Below, piece by piece: positions 32,665 to 45,516 of a stretch of 64,000 bases of DNA. The position numbers and the translations under genes are program-made. The notes beneath the pieces were generated by a model. That model was given only the letters and a program-made list of their open reading frames with translations. It was not told the DNA's origin and ran no database searches. The first letter of the stretch is position 1. Each line of letters starts with the position of its first letter. This DNA comes from an uncultured SAR86 cluster bacterium (lineage in GTDB: Bacteria > Pseudomonadota > Gammaproteobacteria > Magnimaribacterales > D2472): positions 1,941 through 65,940 of the forward strand of contig CABYCL010000002.1 in assembly GCA_902517505.1 (NCBI GenBank), in the 5' to 3' direction.

Positions 32665-34311
<1,647 letters not shown>

Positions 34312-35303: not shown

Positions 35304-36549
35304 CGATTTTAATTTTTGATATTAAATTCTCATCTAATTCCAAAACCTCAAACCGATAATTCTCTATTTGGATACACAAGTTAGCTTGAGGAATTTGATC
35401 AAGATATTCAGTAATTAATCCATTAATAGTTTTAGCATTATCTTCAGGAATTGCCCAGCTTAAATAATTATTAAGTTCTCTAATTTTTGAATTACCATCA
35501 GTTAATATTGATCCATCTTTTAATTTAATAAATTCTTTTTCTAACTCATCCCTATCCCCACCAAATGTTCCAGTTATTTCCTTAAAAATATCCTCAACAG
35601 ATATTAAACCCTCTATTTCTCCATATTCATCTACAACCAAACCTAAACTTTGATTACTTGAGAGAAACTCTCTAAGTTGCTTCATTAGAAGGGTAGATTG
35701 AGATACAAAATATGTTTTTTGGAGTATTTTTTTATAATCCTGATTTTTTTTGCTAAAACTTTCTAAGAATGAATGAGAGTCCTTTAAATGAAGAACACCA
35801 ATCATATTATCTATTGTGTCTTTATAAACAGGCAATCTAGTATATTCAGTAGATTCAATAATTTTTGTTGCATTTCCATAGTCTTCATTAATATTTATAC
35901 CAATTATTTCAGAAGTTGGAATCATGATATCTTCTACTACAAGCTCTTCCATGCCTAAAACAGAGGAAAGCATTTTCCTATATTGTTTTGGGATTAATTC
36001 ACCAGATTCTTCAAGAAGTGTTTTAAGTTCCTCGGTATTTAAATTTTCATTTAACGAGGCATCTCTCGCATTTAATTTAAATAATTTAAGTATCAACCTG
36101 CTTAGAAAATTAGTGAAAAATATTATTGGTTTAAAGATATAAATAAGAATATTTAGAATAAAAGATGATCTTGTTGCAAAACTTTCAGGCTTTATTGTAG
36201 CCATTGTTTTTGGAGTAATTTCTGAAAAAATCAGAATCACTATAGTTAATATGACTGAACCTAATAAAACATTACCACCAAAATAATCAATCATAATTAT
36301 TGTCACAATCGCTGAGGCTAAAATATTTGCAAAATTATTTCCTACTAAGATTGCTGATAGCAACTGATCGGGTCTTTTTAAAAGGTCTAAAGCTCTTTTT
36401 GCACTTGTTTTTGATTTTTTAGATAAATTCCTAAGTTTAATTTTATTAGCAGCCATCATCCCTGTTTCAGAACCAGAAAAGAAACCACTCAAAATTAATA
36501 AGAGTATAAGTGATGAAAATAAAAATATTAAAGAGGGGTCTTCTAACAT
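35293..36549 (-). CDS. CNNM/DUF21-CBS-CorC_HlyC family transporter (YfjD/CorB-like)
   Basis: N-terminal four-TM DUF21 (GFFSGSETGMMA), a CBS pair and a C-terminal CorC-type domain. The internal ATG at 36549 (TAATG junction with the upstream gene) is preferred over the track start at 36600. Confidence 0.8.
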   Translation of the reverse strand: MLEDPSLIFLFSSLILLLILSGFFSGSETGMMAANKIKLRNLSKKSKTSAKRALDLLKRPDQLLSAILVGNNFANILASAIVTIIMIDYFGGNVLLGSVILTIVILIFSEITPKTMATIKPESFATRSSFILNILIYIFKPIIFFTNFLSRLILKLFKLNARDASLNENLNTEELKTLLEESGELIPKQYRKMLSSVLGMEELVVEDIMIPTSEIIGININEDYGNATKIIESTEYTRLPVYKDTIDNMIGVLHLKDSHSFLESFSKKNQDYKKILQKTYFVSQSTLLMKQLREFLSSNQSLGLVVDEYGEIEGLISVEDIFKEITGTFGGDRDELEKEFIKLKDGSILTDGNSKIRELNNYLSWAIPEDNAKTINGLITEYLDQIPQANLCIQIENYRFEVLELDENLISKIKIVKI

Positions 36550-37115
36550 TATGATCCAGCTATATATGAATTCATAAAATATGCTCCCAAGACAGCCCAC
36601 ATAGCAATAAAAAGACTCCTTGTAGCGTACTTAATGGGAAAATTAAAATATTTCACACCAGTCACAGTTACAACAAAGATTAACCAAGCAATAAAGGTAA
36701 AAATAGCTTTAAAAATTAAATTTGAGGTAAAAATAGATTGCATGCTAAGGCCAGAAATTAAAGAAAGTGATAGAAATAAAAGCCCAATTCCCAATAGTTT
36801 AAATACTATTTTATAGCTTCTTTCGACTGAAAATGGTTCTAGGCCCATCAAGCTACCCATTTTGATTTTTTTAACTTTTCTTTCAAGAATTAAGATTTCA
36901 TTATAAGCAATAAAAATGAACAGCAAGCTAAGTCCAGTTACCATGAAATGAATTGTCGGCAAGATAGATATAACCTCATAAGTTAACAAATATATTAAAA
37001 TGTATGATAAAGCTGACATGGTTATTGAAATAAAAAGAGAGCTTTCCTTTTGGTAGAAGACTCTAATAATAAAATAGATAACTATGCTTATAGTTACTTG
37101 GGTAATAAAACTCAT
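36549..37115 (-). CDS. YpjD-like / cytochrome c assembly (CcsA-like) family inner membrane protein
   Basis: 188 aa polytopic protein. It sits immediately upstream of the yfjD-like gene and divergent from rpsP, matching the E. coli ypjD-yfjD neighbourhood. It is shorter than E. coli YpjD. Confidence 0.5.
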   Translation of the reverse strand: MSFITQVTISIVIYFIIRVFYQKESSLFISITMSALSYILIYLLTYEVISILPTIHFMVTGLSLLFIFIAYNEILILERKVKKIKMGSLMGLEPFSVERSYKIVFKLLGIGLLFLSLSLISGLSMQSIFTSNLIFKAIFTFIAWLIFVVTVTGVKYFNFPIKYATRSLFIAMWAVLGAYFMNSYIAGS

Positions 37116-37217: not shown

Positions 37218-37898
37218 ATGGTAATTATTAGATTGGCTAGAAGTGGTTCAAAAAAGAATCCATATTATTTTATTACTGTTGCAGATGAAAGACGTCCAAG
37301 AGACGGTTCATTCATAGAGAGACTTGGTTTTTTTAATCCTTCAGCCAAAGGTCAAGAAGAAAGATTAAGAATAGATTTAAATAAGATAGAAGAGTGGAAA
37401 TCAAAAGGTGCTCAGGTTAGTGATAGAGTAGGTGCTTTAGTAAAAGAAGCTAATTTAACACCAGAAGAATTTGCGGCAAAGGTTGAAGCAAAAAAAGCAA
37501 AAGCTAATGCAAAAAAAGCTGTTTTAGCAGAAAAATTAGCAAAAGAAGCTGAGGAACAAGCTGCTAGTGAGGCTCAAGCAGAAGAAGAATCTCCAGCCGA
37601 AGAGGAAGCACCTGCTGAAGAAGAAGCACCTGCTGAAGAAGAAGCTCCAGCCGAAGAGGAAGCACCAGCTGAAGAAGAAGCTCCAGCCGAAGAGGAAGCA
37701 CCAGCTGAAGAAGAAGCTCCTGCTGAAGAGGAAGCACCAGCTGAAGAAGAAGCTCCTGCTGAAGAGGAAGCACCTGCAGAAGAAGAAGCTCCTGCTGAAG
37801 AGGAAGCACCAGCTGAAGAAGAAGCTCCTGCTGAAGAAGAAGCTCCTGCTGAAGAAGAGTCTGAAGAAAAAGATTCTTCAGAAGATGAAAAAAAGTAA
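37218..37898 (+). CDS. rpsP: 30S ribosomal protein bS16 with ~145-aa C-terminal extension (A/K-rich helix plus acidic EEEAPA array)
   Basis: The first ~80 aa ([41 protein letters not shown]...) are canonical S16. The remainder is the extension. rpsP-rimM-trmD-rplS synteny. Confidence 0.9.
37581..37850 (+). repeat. tandem 18-nt (6-codon) repeat array, about 15 units, encoding EEE(A/S)PA inside rpsP
   Basis: Counted directly: units of gaa-ga[ag]-gaa-gc[at]-cc[atg]-gc[cta]. Two subtypes alternate (36-nt super-period). The array is GC-rich relative to its surroundings. Confidence 0.95.
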
Positions 37899-38403
37899 AC
37901 TAGTTTGCATTGGAACCATTGGAAAACCTAGAGGTTTAAAGGGAGAATTTTTTCTAAATTCTTTTTGTAATCCAAGAGAAAATATTCTTAAATACATTGA
38001 TAACATCCAGACTAAGGATATAAAGCTTAGCTTTGAGTATATTAAAAAAAGCAATACTAAATTTCATGCAAAAATCAAAGATGTAAATGATTTAGATGGA
38101 ATTAAAGAATATACAAATATTAAACTCTACATTTTATCGAATGATTTACCTGTACTGTCTTCAAATGAGACCTATTGGCATGATCTTGTTGGAATGCTTG
38201 TTGTAAATATAAATAAAAATGAGATATTAGGCATAATTGAAGGATTAAATAACTTTGGTTCAAATGATTGTTTAATAGTAAAACCTTCAACTGAATCAAT
38301 AGATAACAAAGAAAGATTAATTCCTTTTATAAAACAAACTTTTATAACATCAATTGATAAAGAAAAGAGATTAGTAAAAGTAGACTGGGAAAGTGATTAC
38401 TAA
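37885..38403 (+). CDS. rimM: 16S rRNA processing protein RimM
   Basis: [23 protein letters not shown] matches the RimM N-terminus. This ATG overlaps the rpsP 3' end by 14 nt. The track ORF from 37567 is the same frame read back through the repeat. Confidence 0.85.
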
Positions 38404-38404
38404 A

Positions 38405-39136
38405 ATGAATATTAATATATTAACTATATTTCCTGAGATATTTAATGTTTTAGAATCTGGTGTCGTTTCAAAACCAATTAAGAATAAATTACTTTCTATT
38501 CAAGCTTTAGATATAAGAAAGAATTCTGTAAATAAACATAATCACATAGATTCAAAACCCTATGGTGGTGGTGAAGGAATGGTTATGATGGCTGAACCAA
38601 TTGTTAAAACATTAAAAGAAGTAGATAAAAAAAAACGTGGTCGAGTAATCTTTATGTCACCTCAAGGCAAGAGACTAAACCAACAAAAAATTATTTCTTT
38701 ATCTAAATTAAAAAATATAACTTTAATTTGTGGAAGATATGAGGGTATAGATCAAAGAATAATTGATAAATATGTAGATGAAGAAATATCTATAGGTGAT
38801 TTTATTTTAAGTGGTGGCGAGTATGCAGCAATATGTCTAGTAGATGCTATATCTAGATACTTGCCAGGGACTTTAGGAAACAAAAACTCATATCTAAATG
38901 ATACTTTTTCAAATGGTTTATTAAAAGGAGATGTTTTCACAAAACCTGAAATATTTGAATCGATGAAGGTTCCAGATGTGCTTTTATCAGGAAATCATAA
39001 AAAAATTGAAACTTGGAGATCTGAAATATCTTTTATAAGAACTTTAATGAAAAGGCCAGATTTACTAGATGGTCTAAAATTAACAAAAAAACAAAAAAAA
39101 CTCTTGGAAGAATGGAGATCTAAGGCTATCCTATAG
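38405..39136 (+). CDS. trmD: tRNA (guanine37-N1)-methyltransferase TrmD
   Basis: MNINILTIFPEIF, YGGGEGMVM and GRYEGIDQR motifs. ATG at 38405 is preferred over GTG at 38393. Confidence 0.93.
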   Translation: MNINILTIFPEIFNVLESGVVSKPIKNKLLSIQALDIRKNSVNKHNHIDSKPYGGGEGMVMMAEPIVKTLKEVDKKKRGRVIFMSPQGKRLNQQKIISLSKLKNITLICGRYEGIDQRIIDKYVDEEISIGDFILSGGEYAAICLVDAISRYLPGTLGNKNSYLNDTFSNGLLKGDVFTKPEIFESMKVPDVLLSGNHKKIETWRSEISFIRTLMKRPDLLDGLKLTKKQKKLLEEWRSKAIL

Positions 39137-39155: not shown

Positions 39156-40049
39156 ATGAGTGATAGTAAAGACAACAAGAAAAAAGGCTTTTTTTCCCGT
39201 TTATTTGGAGGATTAAGTGCGCCTAAAGAAACAGAAAATAAAGTAACTAAATCTCAAGATTCTGTTGAATTACCAACAAAATCCGCTTTAAACAAAATGA
39301 AAAAAGCAGATATAGTAGATGTTGCTAAAGAAAATGGACTTGATTTAGACATAAATTTAACTAAAGCAAAGTTATTAGAAGCTTTGGAACTCCATTTTAA
39401 TCAGTCATCTCCTCCAAGTGCAGTAGATGATGCGGCTACAGCTATGGCTGAGGCAGCAGAAGAAGCACCAGCTGAGGAAGAAGCACCTGCAGAAGAAGAA
39501 GCTCCTGCAGAAGAAGCACCAGCTGAGGAAGAAGCACCTGCTGAAGTAGAAGCTCCAGCCGAAGAGGAAGCACCTGCTGAAGTAGAAGCTCCAGCCGAAG
39601 AGGAAGCACCAGCTGAGGAAGAAGCACCTGCTGAAGTAGAAGCACCTGCAGAAGAAGAAGCACCAGCTGAAGAAGTAAAAGTTTCTTTAGATGAGAAATC
39701 TCCATCACAGATAATTAATAACTTTGAATCAAAACAACTTAAATCAGATCTTCCTGAATTTAGACCTGGTGATACAGTCGTTGTTTCAGTAAAAGTTAAA
39801 GAAGGTGACAGAACAAGACTTCAGGCTTTTGAAGGTGTAGTAATGGGTGTAAAGAAAGGAGGTTTAAACTCATCTTTTATAGTAAGGAAAATTTCCAGTG
39901 GAATTGGAGTTGAGAGAACTTTTCAAACTCATAGCCCTATTATTGATTCTATAAAAGTAAAAAGAAAGGGTGATGTACGCCAAGCTAAATTATTTTTTCT
40001 AAGAGAAAGATCTGGAAAATCTGCAAGAATTAAAGAACGTCTAGAATAA
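39156..40049 (+). CDS. rplS: 50S ribosomal protein bL19 with ~182-aa N-terminal extension
   Basis: The C-terminal 114 aa ([25 protein letters not shown]...RLQAFEGVV...[19 protein letters not shown]...IKERLE) are canonical L19. There is no in-frame ATG/GTG/TTG between Met97 (nt 39444) and the L19 core. Confidence 0.85.
39459..39668 (+). repeat. tandem acidic repeat array ([17 protein letters not shown] units) inside the rplS N-terminal extension
   Basis: Read directly. The unit family and codon usage match the rpsP array, and an exact 33-nt match links the two arrays. Confidence 0.9.
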
Positions 40050-44418: not shown

Positions 44419-45516
44419 ATGGATATTAATGAACTAAAATCAAATTTATCTGATTTGGAAATTAGATTAAAAGATATTAAAGATAATGTTCTTTTGGTTG
44501 ATTCTAAAAAAGATAGACTAAATCAAATTGAAAGCGATCTTTCGGAAGAAGAGGTCTGGTCAGATTTAGAGCTTTCTCAAAAACTCAGCAAGGAAAAAAC
44601 TAGTATTGAAAAGGCACTAAATTCTTTTAATGAAGTTTCTAACAAATTATCTGACTCAATAGTCCTATTAGATGTTTCTATTGAAGAGAATGATGATTCT
44701 TCTTTAGAAGAAATCTTTAATGAAGTTAAAGATATAACATCATCTATTGAAGAACTTGAATTTAGTAGAATGTTTTCAAACAAAATGGATTCATCATCAG
44801 CATATATAGAGATTCAGTCTGGCTCAGGCGGAACTGAGGCGCAAGATTGGGCAGAAATGTTATTGCGAATGTACACGAAGTGGTCTGAGAATAGAGGCTT
44901 CTCCTCAGAATTAGTAGAAATATCTCATGGTGATGTTGCAGGAATAAAATCAGCATCATTGCACGTAGATGGAGACCATGCCTATGGATGGTTAAGGACT
45001 GAAACAGGTATACATAGATTGGTAAGAAAATCTCCTTTCGATTCTGGTAATAGAAGACATACTTCGTTCGCATCTGTTTTTATATCACCTGAGATTGATG
45101 AATCAATTGAAATAAATATTAATAAAGCTGATATAAGAACAGATACATATAGAGCTTCGGGGGCAGGAGGCCAGCATGTTAATAAAACAGATTCTGCCGT
45201 TAGACTGACTCACATACCATCAGGTGTAGTAGCTCAATCACAAAGCGATAGATCACAACATAAAAATAAAGAAAATGCATTAAAACAATTAAAATCCAAG
45301 CTTTACGAGTTAGAATTACAAAAACAGAATGAAGAACAACAAATTCTTGAGGATAGTAAGTCTGATATAGGATGGGGAAGTCAAATTAGATCTTACGTAT
45401 TAGATCAATCAAGAATTAAAGACTTAAGAACAAATTATGAAACAGGTAATACAACAGCAGTTTTAAATGGAGACTTAGATGATTTTATGAAATCATCATT
45501 AAAAGCAGGCGTATAA
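44419..45516 (+). CDS. prfB: peptide chain release factor 2, encoded without programmed +1 frameshift
   Basis: Uninterrupted 365-aa ORF with SPF tripeptide (RKSPFDS) and GGQ (SGAGGQHVN). The N-terminus aligns with E. coli RF2 across the usual frameshift position. Confidence 0.93.
   Translation: MDINELKSNLSDLEIRLKDIKDNVLLVDSKKDRLNQIESDLSEEEVWSDLELSQKLSKEKTSIEKALNSFNEVSNKLSDSIVLLDVSIEENDDSSLEEIFNEVKDITSSIEELEFSRMFSNKMDSSSAYIEIQSGSGGTEAQDWAEMLLRMYTKWSENRGFSSELVEISHGDVAGIKSASLHVDGDHAYGWLRTETGIHRLVRKSPFDSGNRRHTSFASVFISPEIDESIEININKADIRTDTYRASGAGGQHVNKTDSAVRLTHIPSGVVAQSQSDRSQHKNKENALKQLKSKLYELELQKQNEEQQILEDSKSDIGWGSQIRSYVLDQSRIKDLRTNYETGNTTAVLNGDLDDFMKSSLKAGV

Follow-up and report, generated by a model that had tools for sequence, protein, structure and literature searches.

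The ribosomal protein bS16 encoded by an uncultured SAR86 cluster bacterium consists of a canonical core followed by a long, acidic C-terminal tail, most of which is made of 15 tandem copies of a six-residue unit. The tail belongs to a known and widespread class of Ala/Glu-rich S16 tails, within which it is long, strictly periodic and hypervariable. It had been described in a sequence-only reading of the window, by which we mean the whole stretch of 64,000 nucleotides analysed here. The observation is confirmed, and the factual statements made in that reading are all correct. A tail is present in every SAR86 representative that we surveyed, and its length differs between strains with nearly identical flanking DNA.

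Anatomy of S16 and its repeat array

The Pfam profile Ribosomal_S16 (cut-off 27 bits) matched residues 8-68 of the predicted protein with a score of 76.5 bits and was covered over its whole length (profile positions 1-62). A sequence search against the chains of the PDB matched 67 distinct sequences. The E. coli bS16 chain, of 82 residues, aligned over residues 1-80 with an E-value of 9e-25, and the core as a whole aligns over residues 1-79 or 1-80 with the 82-aa bS16 chains of solved ribosomes. Pfam and the PDB alignments thus bear out the earlier placement of the S16 core in approximately the first 80 residues, by comparison with the 82 residues of the E. coli protein. The C-terminal extension, previously put at about 145 residues, comes to about 146 and is translated in frame.

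Cutting the DNA into 18-nt units from position 37581 reproduced the earlier count exactly, giving one EEESPA unit and 14 EEEAPA units up to position 37850, after which come the 15-residue end and the stop codon. The Ala/Lys-rich helical segment in front of the array and the C-terminal end behind it also read as originally given. Tandem Repeats Finder reported the array at 37581..37858 both with a period of 18 nt (15.4 copies, 85% matches, score 381) and with a period of 36 nt (7.7 copies, 92% matches, score 437). The longer period is the better fit, showing that the proposed 36-nt super-period is real, and identical 36-nt blocks are present within the array. The repeat score is far beyond chance. 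When the tail was analysed alone, Pfam assigned it to no family, and the PDB search returned no bS16 chain at E <= 1 but compositional matches only (a chloroplast L19 and a cytochrome subunit). Long open reading frames in other frames (37567..38403 on the forward strand and 37564..37809 on the reverse strand) arise because the repeat contains no stop codons.

The GC content is 0.53-0.55 within the array and 0.23-0.33 in its flanks. The sharp GC-rich island noted in the sequence-only reading is therefore a real contrast, but its cause is purely the amino acid content of the array, acting through codon positions 1 and 2. The GC fractions of the array at the three codon positions are 0.99, 0.49 and 0.10, compared with third-position values of 0.14 for the core of S16 and 0.15 for trmD. 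The array is GC-rich because Glu (GAR), Ala (GCN) and Pro (CCN) are encoded using the A/T-ending codons that are usual in this genome. Foreign DNA as the source of the island is ruled out by the third-position value of 0.10, which is as low as in the remainder of the genome. Between the 15 units, four of the six third-codon positions are variable. Only one of the 12 first and second positions varies, in a single unit, where it changes Ala to Ser, and the differences between units are otherwise all synonymous. Such near-wholly synonymous variation is the pattern of a translated sequence under selection at the peptide level.

AlphaFold2 was run on S16 together with 41 SAR86 homologues. The core was modelled with pLDDT values of about 78-94, and was followed by a single long helix spanning residues 82-121 (pLDDT about 76-81), a segment in which many positions are invariant in the 41 homologues. 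The predicted helix provides an ordered segment directly after the core, as in extended bS16 proteins. Residues 121-226 were modelled with no secondary structure and with pLDDT values of about 38-48, and the array is accordingly predicted to be intrinsically disordered, which answers the disorder check proposed earlier. By computation the core has a net charge of +5 and the helix one of 0, the array contributes -45 and the end -6, which sums to -46 for the whole protein. Neither Lys nor Arg occurs in the array for about 100 residues. Complete S16 has a pI of 4.2, compared with 9.9 for the core alone, and an expected mass of about 24 kDa, which would drop to about 9 kDa in a truncated protein. 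The expected influence of an acidic tail on electrostatics is thus, by calculation, a large one.

Pfam searches of the open reading frames gave the gene order rpsP-rimM-trmD-rplS, with rpsP in first place, which is the classical rpsP operon arrangement. As read from the sequence, rpsP and rimM overlap by 14 nt, with the rimM ATG falling within the final codons of rpsP. An Rfam scan and a tRNA scan of the window gave no match. The features of the operon are listed in Table 1.

Table 1. Features of the rpsP operon in the window (all coordinates are positions in the window)
Feature	Position	Strand	Basis or remark
rpsP (bS16)	37218..37898	+	226 aa plus stop; ORF list, Pfam PF00886
bS16 core, canonical, aa 1-80	37218..37457	+	alignment to solved bS16 chains, AlphaFold2, charge
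Lys/Ala/Glu-rich helix, aa 82-121, conserved proximal extension	37461..37580	+	AlphaFold2, SAR86 conservation
Tandem array, 15 units of 18 nt (1 EEESPA + 14 EEEAPA), aa 122-211	37581..37850	+	
C-terminal end, 15 residues, aa 212-226	37851..37895	+	conserved across SAR86; overlaps rimM start
Putative 9-bp RNA hairpin UCUGAAGAA-AAAGA-UUCUUCAGA (inverted repeat TCTGAAGAA/TTCTTCAGA)	37860..37882	+	prediction only
rimM	37885..38403	+	Pfam RimM and PRC_RimM domains
trmD	38393..39136	+	Pfam tRNA_m1G_MT, 185 bits
rplS (bL19), 297 aa	39156..40049	+	Pfam PF01245, 155.5 bits, residues 185-295
L19 polybasic-hydrophobic start motif	39177..39215	+	sequence
L19 helix-loop-helix, aa 41-84 (44 residues)	39276..39407	+	predicted, pLDDT 87-94
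Sister array in rplS, 12.3 copies, 18-nt unit type EEEAPA / EVEAPA / EEAPA	39458..39675	+	Tandem Repeats Finder

Distribution and length of the tail in SAR86

Relatives of the window were found using TrmD as the anchor. The search gave 80 loci, of which approximately the first 60 were from the SAR86 cluster or from unclassified Gammaproteobacteria, with one or two mis-binned. TrmD identity was 96% for the best two relatives, which places the window in SAR86, and went down to about 55% across the SAR86 representatives. The S16 tail was then compared across the SAR86 species representatives whose rpsP is readable (n = 48). It is present in all 48 of them and has a length of 46-219 aa with a median of 118 aa, providing the comparison of rpsP lengths across relatives that had been suggested as a check. 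The architecture is constant, and consists of a conserved helix, which is found in every SAR86 locus, then a variable acidic array and then an end of conserved type. The types of repeat unit differ between SAR86 clades. The pooled composition of the arrays is 43% Glu, 33% Ala, 15% Pro, 4% Val and 0.8% Lys. A literature search for SAR86 with ribosomal protein S16 found no paper.

The end motif is in frame in 41 of the 48 representatives, whatever the length of the array. A frameshift is found inside the array in seven (L006, L027, L035, L043, L045, L050 and L054), where the array carries on in another frame after the stop codon. At least two of these seven sequences come from pilon-polished assemblies. 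The frameshifts are either assembly errors or real truncations, and indel errors are a plausible cause.

Two single-cell genomes have 13-14 mismatches to the window in the 363 nt before the array (about 96% identity). In these relatives the array consists of 11 EEEAPA units or of 13 alternating mixed units, and the codon variants differ. Metagenome contigs were also scanned with a 32-nt anchor, which gave 16 loci. Contigs L083 and L088 are identical over 345 nt upstream and 348 nt downstream of the array, and their S16 proteins measure 225 and 220 aa. L083 and L095, with 2 and 0 mismatches in the two flanks, encode proteins of 225 and 180 aa, and L082 and L085, with 1 and 0 mismatches, encode proteins of 208 and 221 aa. 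Contigs with near-identical flanks (0-2 mismatches in about 700 nt) thus differ by 5-45 aa in the length of S16, always by whole codons. L084, the closest relative of the window (12 mismatches in 363 nt), has more than 20 repeat units before the contig ends. The array length is therefore polymorphic, as the sequence-only reading had thought likely, and, to judge from these contigs, the rpsP array is hypervariable in length.

Slippage or unequal recombination, which had been put forward as the origin of the array, is supported by the identical 36-nt blocks and by the 11-unit and 13-unit relatives at about 96% identity. The associated claim of a recent expansion holds for the current arrangement of the units but not for the tail itself, which is clade-wide in SAR86. 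The unit length is a multiple of three throughout, being 18 nt in the window and 15 or 18 nt in the relatives. Assignment of the array to the class of phase-variable contingency repeats was rejected on the basis of this unit length and of the 41 in-frame alleles among 48.

The sister array in rplS

A second array of the same type of unit is present in rplS, 1.6 kb downstream of rpsP; the sequence-only reading did not mention it. L19 of the window has an N-terminal extension of 184 aa before the L19 domain (aa 185-295), and the net charge of the extension is -34. An acidic N-terminal extension of L19 is found in all SAR86 loci with an intact rplS except L048, and is absent from the sister lineage represented by L063 and L064.

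The rplS and rpsP arrays of the window have sequence in common, with 58% of the 12-mers of the rplS array also occurring in the rpsP array. Across 33 genomes the sharing of L19-array 12-mers was 0.198 with the S16 array of the same genome and 0.077 with the S16 arrays of other genomes (permutation p < 1e-4). The excess of own-genome sharing was absent in L088 and in contig L090 (AACY020553843.1, which from its accession series we take to be a Sanger-read Global Ocean Sampling (GOS) record). The absence of the excess in these two indicates that exchange between the S16 and L19 arrays is lineage-specific or is partly an assembly effect.

Ahead of its array, L19 of the window has a short polybasic-hydrophobic motif followed by a predicted helix-loop-helix. 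This N-terminal module is restricted to a SAR86A-like subclade and about 117 protein clusters. A Foldseek search with the helix-loop-helix gave no significant match (best E-value 0.69). The top of the list was dominated by SAP/HeH domains, namely those of 3'hExo, MKL1, FAN1 and the Rho N-terminus, none of them significant, and the model is suggestive of a SAP-like fold. FtsY-like membrane targeting by the L19 N-terminus was considered and is not supported. A search with 40 residues returned two fragments and no FtsY, and the helical hydrophobic moment was no higher than that of shuffled sequences.

It is conceivable that the S16 and L19 arrays form one system, comprising two polyanionic tethers on the two ribosomal subunits that are encoded by direct repeats bracketing rimM-trmD and exchanging sequence. 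In the SAR86A-like subclade the L19 tether would end in the polybasic-hydrophobic motif and a SAP/HeH-like nucleic-acid-binding fold, and the pair would fix or arrange ribosomes in these very small cells, with the membrane, nucleic acid or other ribosomes as the support. We regard this idea as speculative and improbable.

Known tails, the conserved end and the possible function of the array

Low-complexity regions with more than 70% Ala+Glu account for 157 of 187 such regions in S16 and for 24 of 32 in L19, with each orthologue from a different genus (Ntountoumi et al. 2019, PMC6821194). The same authors take the energetic cost of low-complexity regions as a sign of an important function that calls for investigation (PMC6821194). 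Because Ala/Glu-rich S16 tails are documented and widespread, the tail described here is less unusual than the sequence-only reading implied. The EEEAPA unit has 83% Ala+Glu and the pooled SAR86 arrays have 43% Glu and 33% Ala, so both exceed the 70% threshold. The SAR86 tail resembles the regions previously described in the protein that carries it and in composition class. What it adds is a strict 18-nt periodicity with a 36-nt super-period, a regular spacing of prolines, large length differences between near-identical strains and a sister array in the same operon. In a search of 1.84 billion cluster representatives we found many S16 proteins of 150-260 aa with helix-plus-acidic tails.

A search of the PDB showed that bS16 chains of 137, 147, 156, 162, 188 and 192 residues are present in solved ribosomes. 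Extended proteins are those of Mycobacterium smegmatis (156 aa), M. tuberculosis (162 aa) and Cutibacterium acnes (147 aa) and, in the Bacteroidota, of Flavobacterium johnsoniae (188 aa) and Porphyromonas gingivalis (192 aa). The 65-residue extension of C. acnes bS16 binds uS4 near the mRNA entry side, its distal end not being seen (PMC10085706). In M. smegmatis 30 of the 74 residues of the extension were modelled, reaching uS4 (PMC6133939), and the approximately 100 additional residues of the P. gingivalis protein are peripheral and connect 16S rRNA with uS4 (PMC12123416). The extension reaches uS4 and h17 in all three ribosomes (PMC10085706, PMC6133939, PMC12123416). SAR86 S16 is likewise extended, with 146 residues beyond the 80-aa core against a threshold of at least 60. 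The proteins of the Actinobacteria and Bacteroidota have C-terminal extensions of 65-100 residues after an 80-aa core, with an ordered proximal part, and these have not been reported as tandem DNA repeats or as strongly acidic. In contrast, the extension in SAR86 reaches 146 aa, exceeding theirs, and polyanionic repeat makes up two thirds of it. Its likeness to the Actinobacteria/Bacteroidota type is one of position.

The closest solved sequence is the 137-aa bS16 in PDB entries 9t0z, 9t61 and 9tze, which aligns over query residues 1-132 with an E-value of 1.7e-30. The alignment with chain 9t0z_P covers the Lys/Ala-rich stretch and then a EEPKAEEAKEAPPAE-like acidic end, with low posterior probability in the tail part. 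The tail of this protein is only about 55 residues long and lacks a repeat array. Spinach chloroplast bL19c (PDB 4v61 and 5mlc) has an acidic Glu/Ala/Pro-rich N-terminal extension, of which the first 40 or so mature residues are not modelled, suggesting that they are flexible. This example concerns L19 and not S16, and its likeness to the SAR86 tail is compositional only (E-value 0.018).

The C-terminal end of S16 is conserved across SAR86 clades at both the protein and the nucleotide level (GATTCTTCAGA[AT]GATGAA). The conservation covers synonymous sites of rpsP and includes the rimM ATG at 37885. A 9-bp inverted repeat stops 2 nt before the rimM AUG, and the 18 nt around it are conserved across SAR86, synonymous sites included. 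The single-sequence minimum-free-energy fold of this region of the window contains a related hairpin (-11.8 kcal/mol), and such folds gave a comparable hairpin in most SAR86 loci (-6 to -14 kcal/mol). The rpsP end also has a U/C-rich stretch that is complementary to the GAA-rich array. RNAalifold applied to the SAR86 loci detected no consensus structure and no covariation; the lack of a consensus is explained by the pairing of the 5' arm with the GAA-rich array in several registers. The hairpin may be a translation-control element for rimM that is located within the 3' end of rpsP. In the trmD operon of E. coli, mRNA folding at the rimM and trmD starts has been reported to lower the translation of these two genes relative to S16 and L19. 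Folding of this kind would fit our reading of the conserved end, which on sequence grounds seems to reflect a nucleotide-level constraint from rimM initiation and not a peptide motif.

In the picture that we propose, S16 of the window comprises four parts, namely an rRNA-binding core, a conserved helix, an array predicted to be disordered and an end that holds the rimM start codon. By analogy with other long bS16 proteins, the helix (aa 82-121) would lie on the solvent face of the 30S body and run towards uS4, a contact that is extrapolated to SAR86 from distant phyla. The array, a proline-punctuated polyglutamate segment of 90 residues, would project from there into the solvent. Slippage or unequal recombination, acting on single 18-nt units and on 36-nt double units, probably creates the array and changes its length in frame, and in the lineage of the window the array shares units with the sister rplS array. 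Selection would keep its composition (Glu/Ala/Pro with almost no basic residues) and not its length. The array would then most likely act as a flexible polyanionic brush on the ribosome surface. It would shift the protein from basic (pI 9.9) to acidic (pI 4.2) and could shield free basic S16 or the 30S surface from non-specific contacts with RNA and protein. In our opinion the array is not a specific binding domain. The anatomy of S16 and the dynamics of its repeats are well supported, and the brush function, which we infer, is the weak step. We consider the proposal as a whole, comprising anatomy, repeat dynamics and function, to be probable on balance.

The array might instead be neutral low-complexity growth, that is, a harmless and functionless by-product of slippage at a solvent-exposed terminus. 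Growth of this kind is favored by the spread of tail lengths from 46 to 219 aa, by the different unit types of different clades and by near-identical strains that are up to 45 aa apart. No correlation exists between the net charge of the S16 tail and that of the L19 extension (Spearman -0.13, p 0.53), and there is no sign of compensation between the two proteins. Such a result, together with the five-fold range of tail length in SAR86, is in keeping with an amount of charge that is under weak selection or none. Nevertheless, a tail is kept in every SAR86 representative examined, at TrmD identities down to about 55%, the variation inside the array is synonymous and basic residues are almost excluded (0.8% Lys). 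Furthermore, S16 proteins of many genera carry a low-complexity region of the same Ala/Glu type. Clade-wide retention and the exclusion of basic residues weaken the neutral alternative, which we think rather unlikely. Making 100-200 additional residues on each of two abundant proteins, S16 and L19, adds to the cost of synthesis, yet the tails are kept in every SAR86 lineage examined. A different role, in which the array is a flexible tether offering a conserved C-terminal peptide to a partner in the manner of the SSB tail or the C-terminus of a stalk protein, would agree with an end motif that is conserved across SAR86 clades behind a variable array. However, the conservation reaches synonymous positions and the motif covers the rimM ATG, in a region that is complementary to the array through its U/C-rich stretch and has the predicted hairpin at 37860-37882. 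Because of the synonymous sites, the rimM ATG and the hairpin, a nucleotide-level constraint explains the conservation of the end at least as well as a peptide motif would. The C-terminal peptide was set aside as a binding motif in view of the synonymous-site conservation and the rimM start, and a tether of this kind is very improbable.

The frameshifts within the array in seven of 48 representatives, and the overlap of the rimM start with the rpsP end, could be taken to indicate a phase-variable switch in which slippage truncates S16 or alters the translation of the coupled rimM. We give this reading hardly any credence, since slippage by whole units of 18 or 15 nt keeps the frame, and among the frameshifted cases are MAG assemblies, some of them pilon-polished, in which indel error is plausible. 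The same frameshifts also bear on whether assembly has given the window a wrong copy number, as distinct from a spurious array, in which case the true gene would have more or fewer than 15 units. As judged from contig-end positions, many contigs of single-cell genomes end at a distance of a few hundred bases from trmD, at the expected rpsP or rplS array (L001, L002, L004, L006, L008 and others). Chimeric sequences point in the same direction: P0184, in public protein clusters, joins the L19 N-terminal module to the S16 end, P0238 joins the S16 core and array to the L19 core with rimM-trmD missing, and P0059 joins S16 and its array to a SAP domain. In addition, an exact-sequence look-up showed that the 226-aa S16 is absent from records elsewhere. 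On the other hand, the open reading frame of the window is intact and closes with the conserved motif, its units alternate in an orderly 36-nt pattern, and arrays of equal or greater length are found in other assemblies. The GOS contig encodes an S16 of 265 aa and an L19 with a 242-aa extension, and MAG contigs of 1.30 and 1.26 Mb encode S16 tails of 150 and 186 aa. Because these contigs carry long arrays, the array cannot be explained as a short-read artefact, and the concern about assembly raised in the sequence-only reading is answered to that extent. The copy number of 15 is that of the assembly, and an error in it is unlikely.

SAR86 assemblies seem to break at the rpsP and rplS arrays, which also appear to give rise to mis-called genes, and the chimeric or frameshifted S16 and L19 calls in public sets affect the use of both genes as markers. 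SAR86 also offers a natural length series, with near-identical strains tens of residues apart, that could be used to probe whether the length of the tail matters.

The genes around the rpsP operon are ordinary core genes. Upstream are groEL, a Ni-superoxide dismutase gene and a CNNM/CorC gene, and downstream are xerD-like and dsbC-like genes, hom, thrC, prfB and lysS. A hydrophobic open reading frame of 188 aa on the reverse strand (36549..37115) is divergent from rpsP, overlaps the end of the CNNM/CorC gene and has no Pfam match at E <= 1e-5. The release-factor gene at 44419..45516, which has PCRF and RF-1 domains, is a single uninterrupted open reading frame of 365 aa. If this gene is prfB, there is no sign in it of the programmed +1 frameshift found in many bacteria. 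Three copies of ATGGGCGGC are located at 34276..34305, at the 3' end of the groEL-like open reading frame (32668..34311), and are presumably the usual Gly-Gly-Met C-terminal repeat of GroEL.
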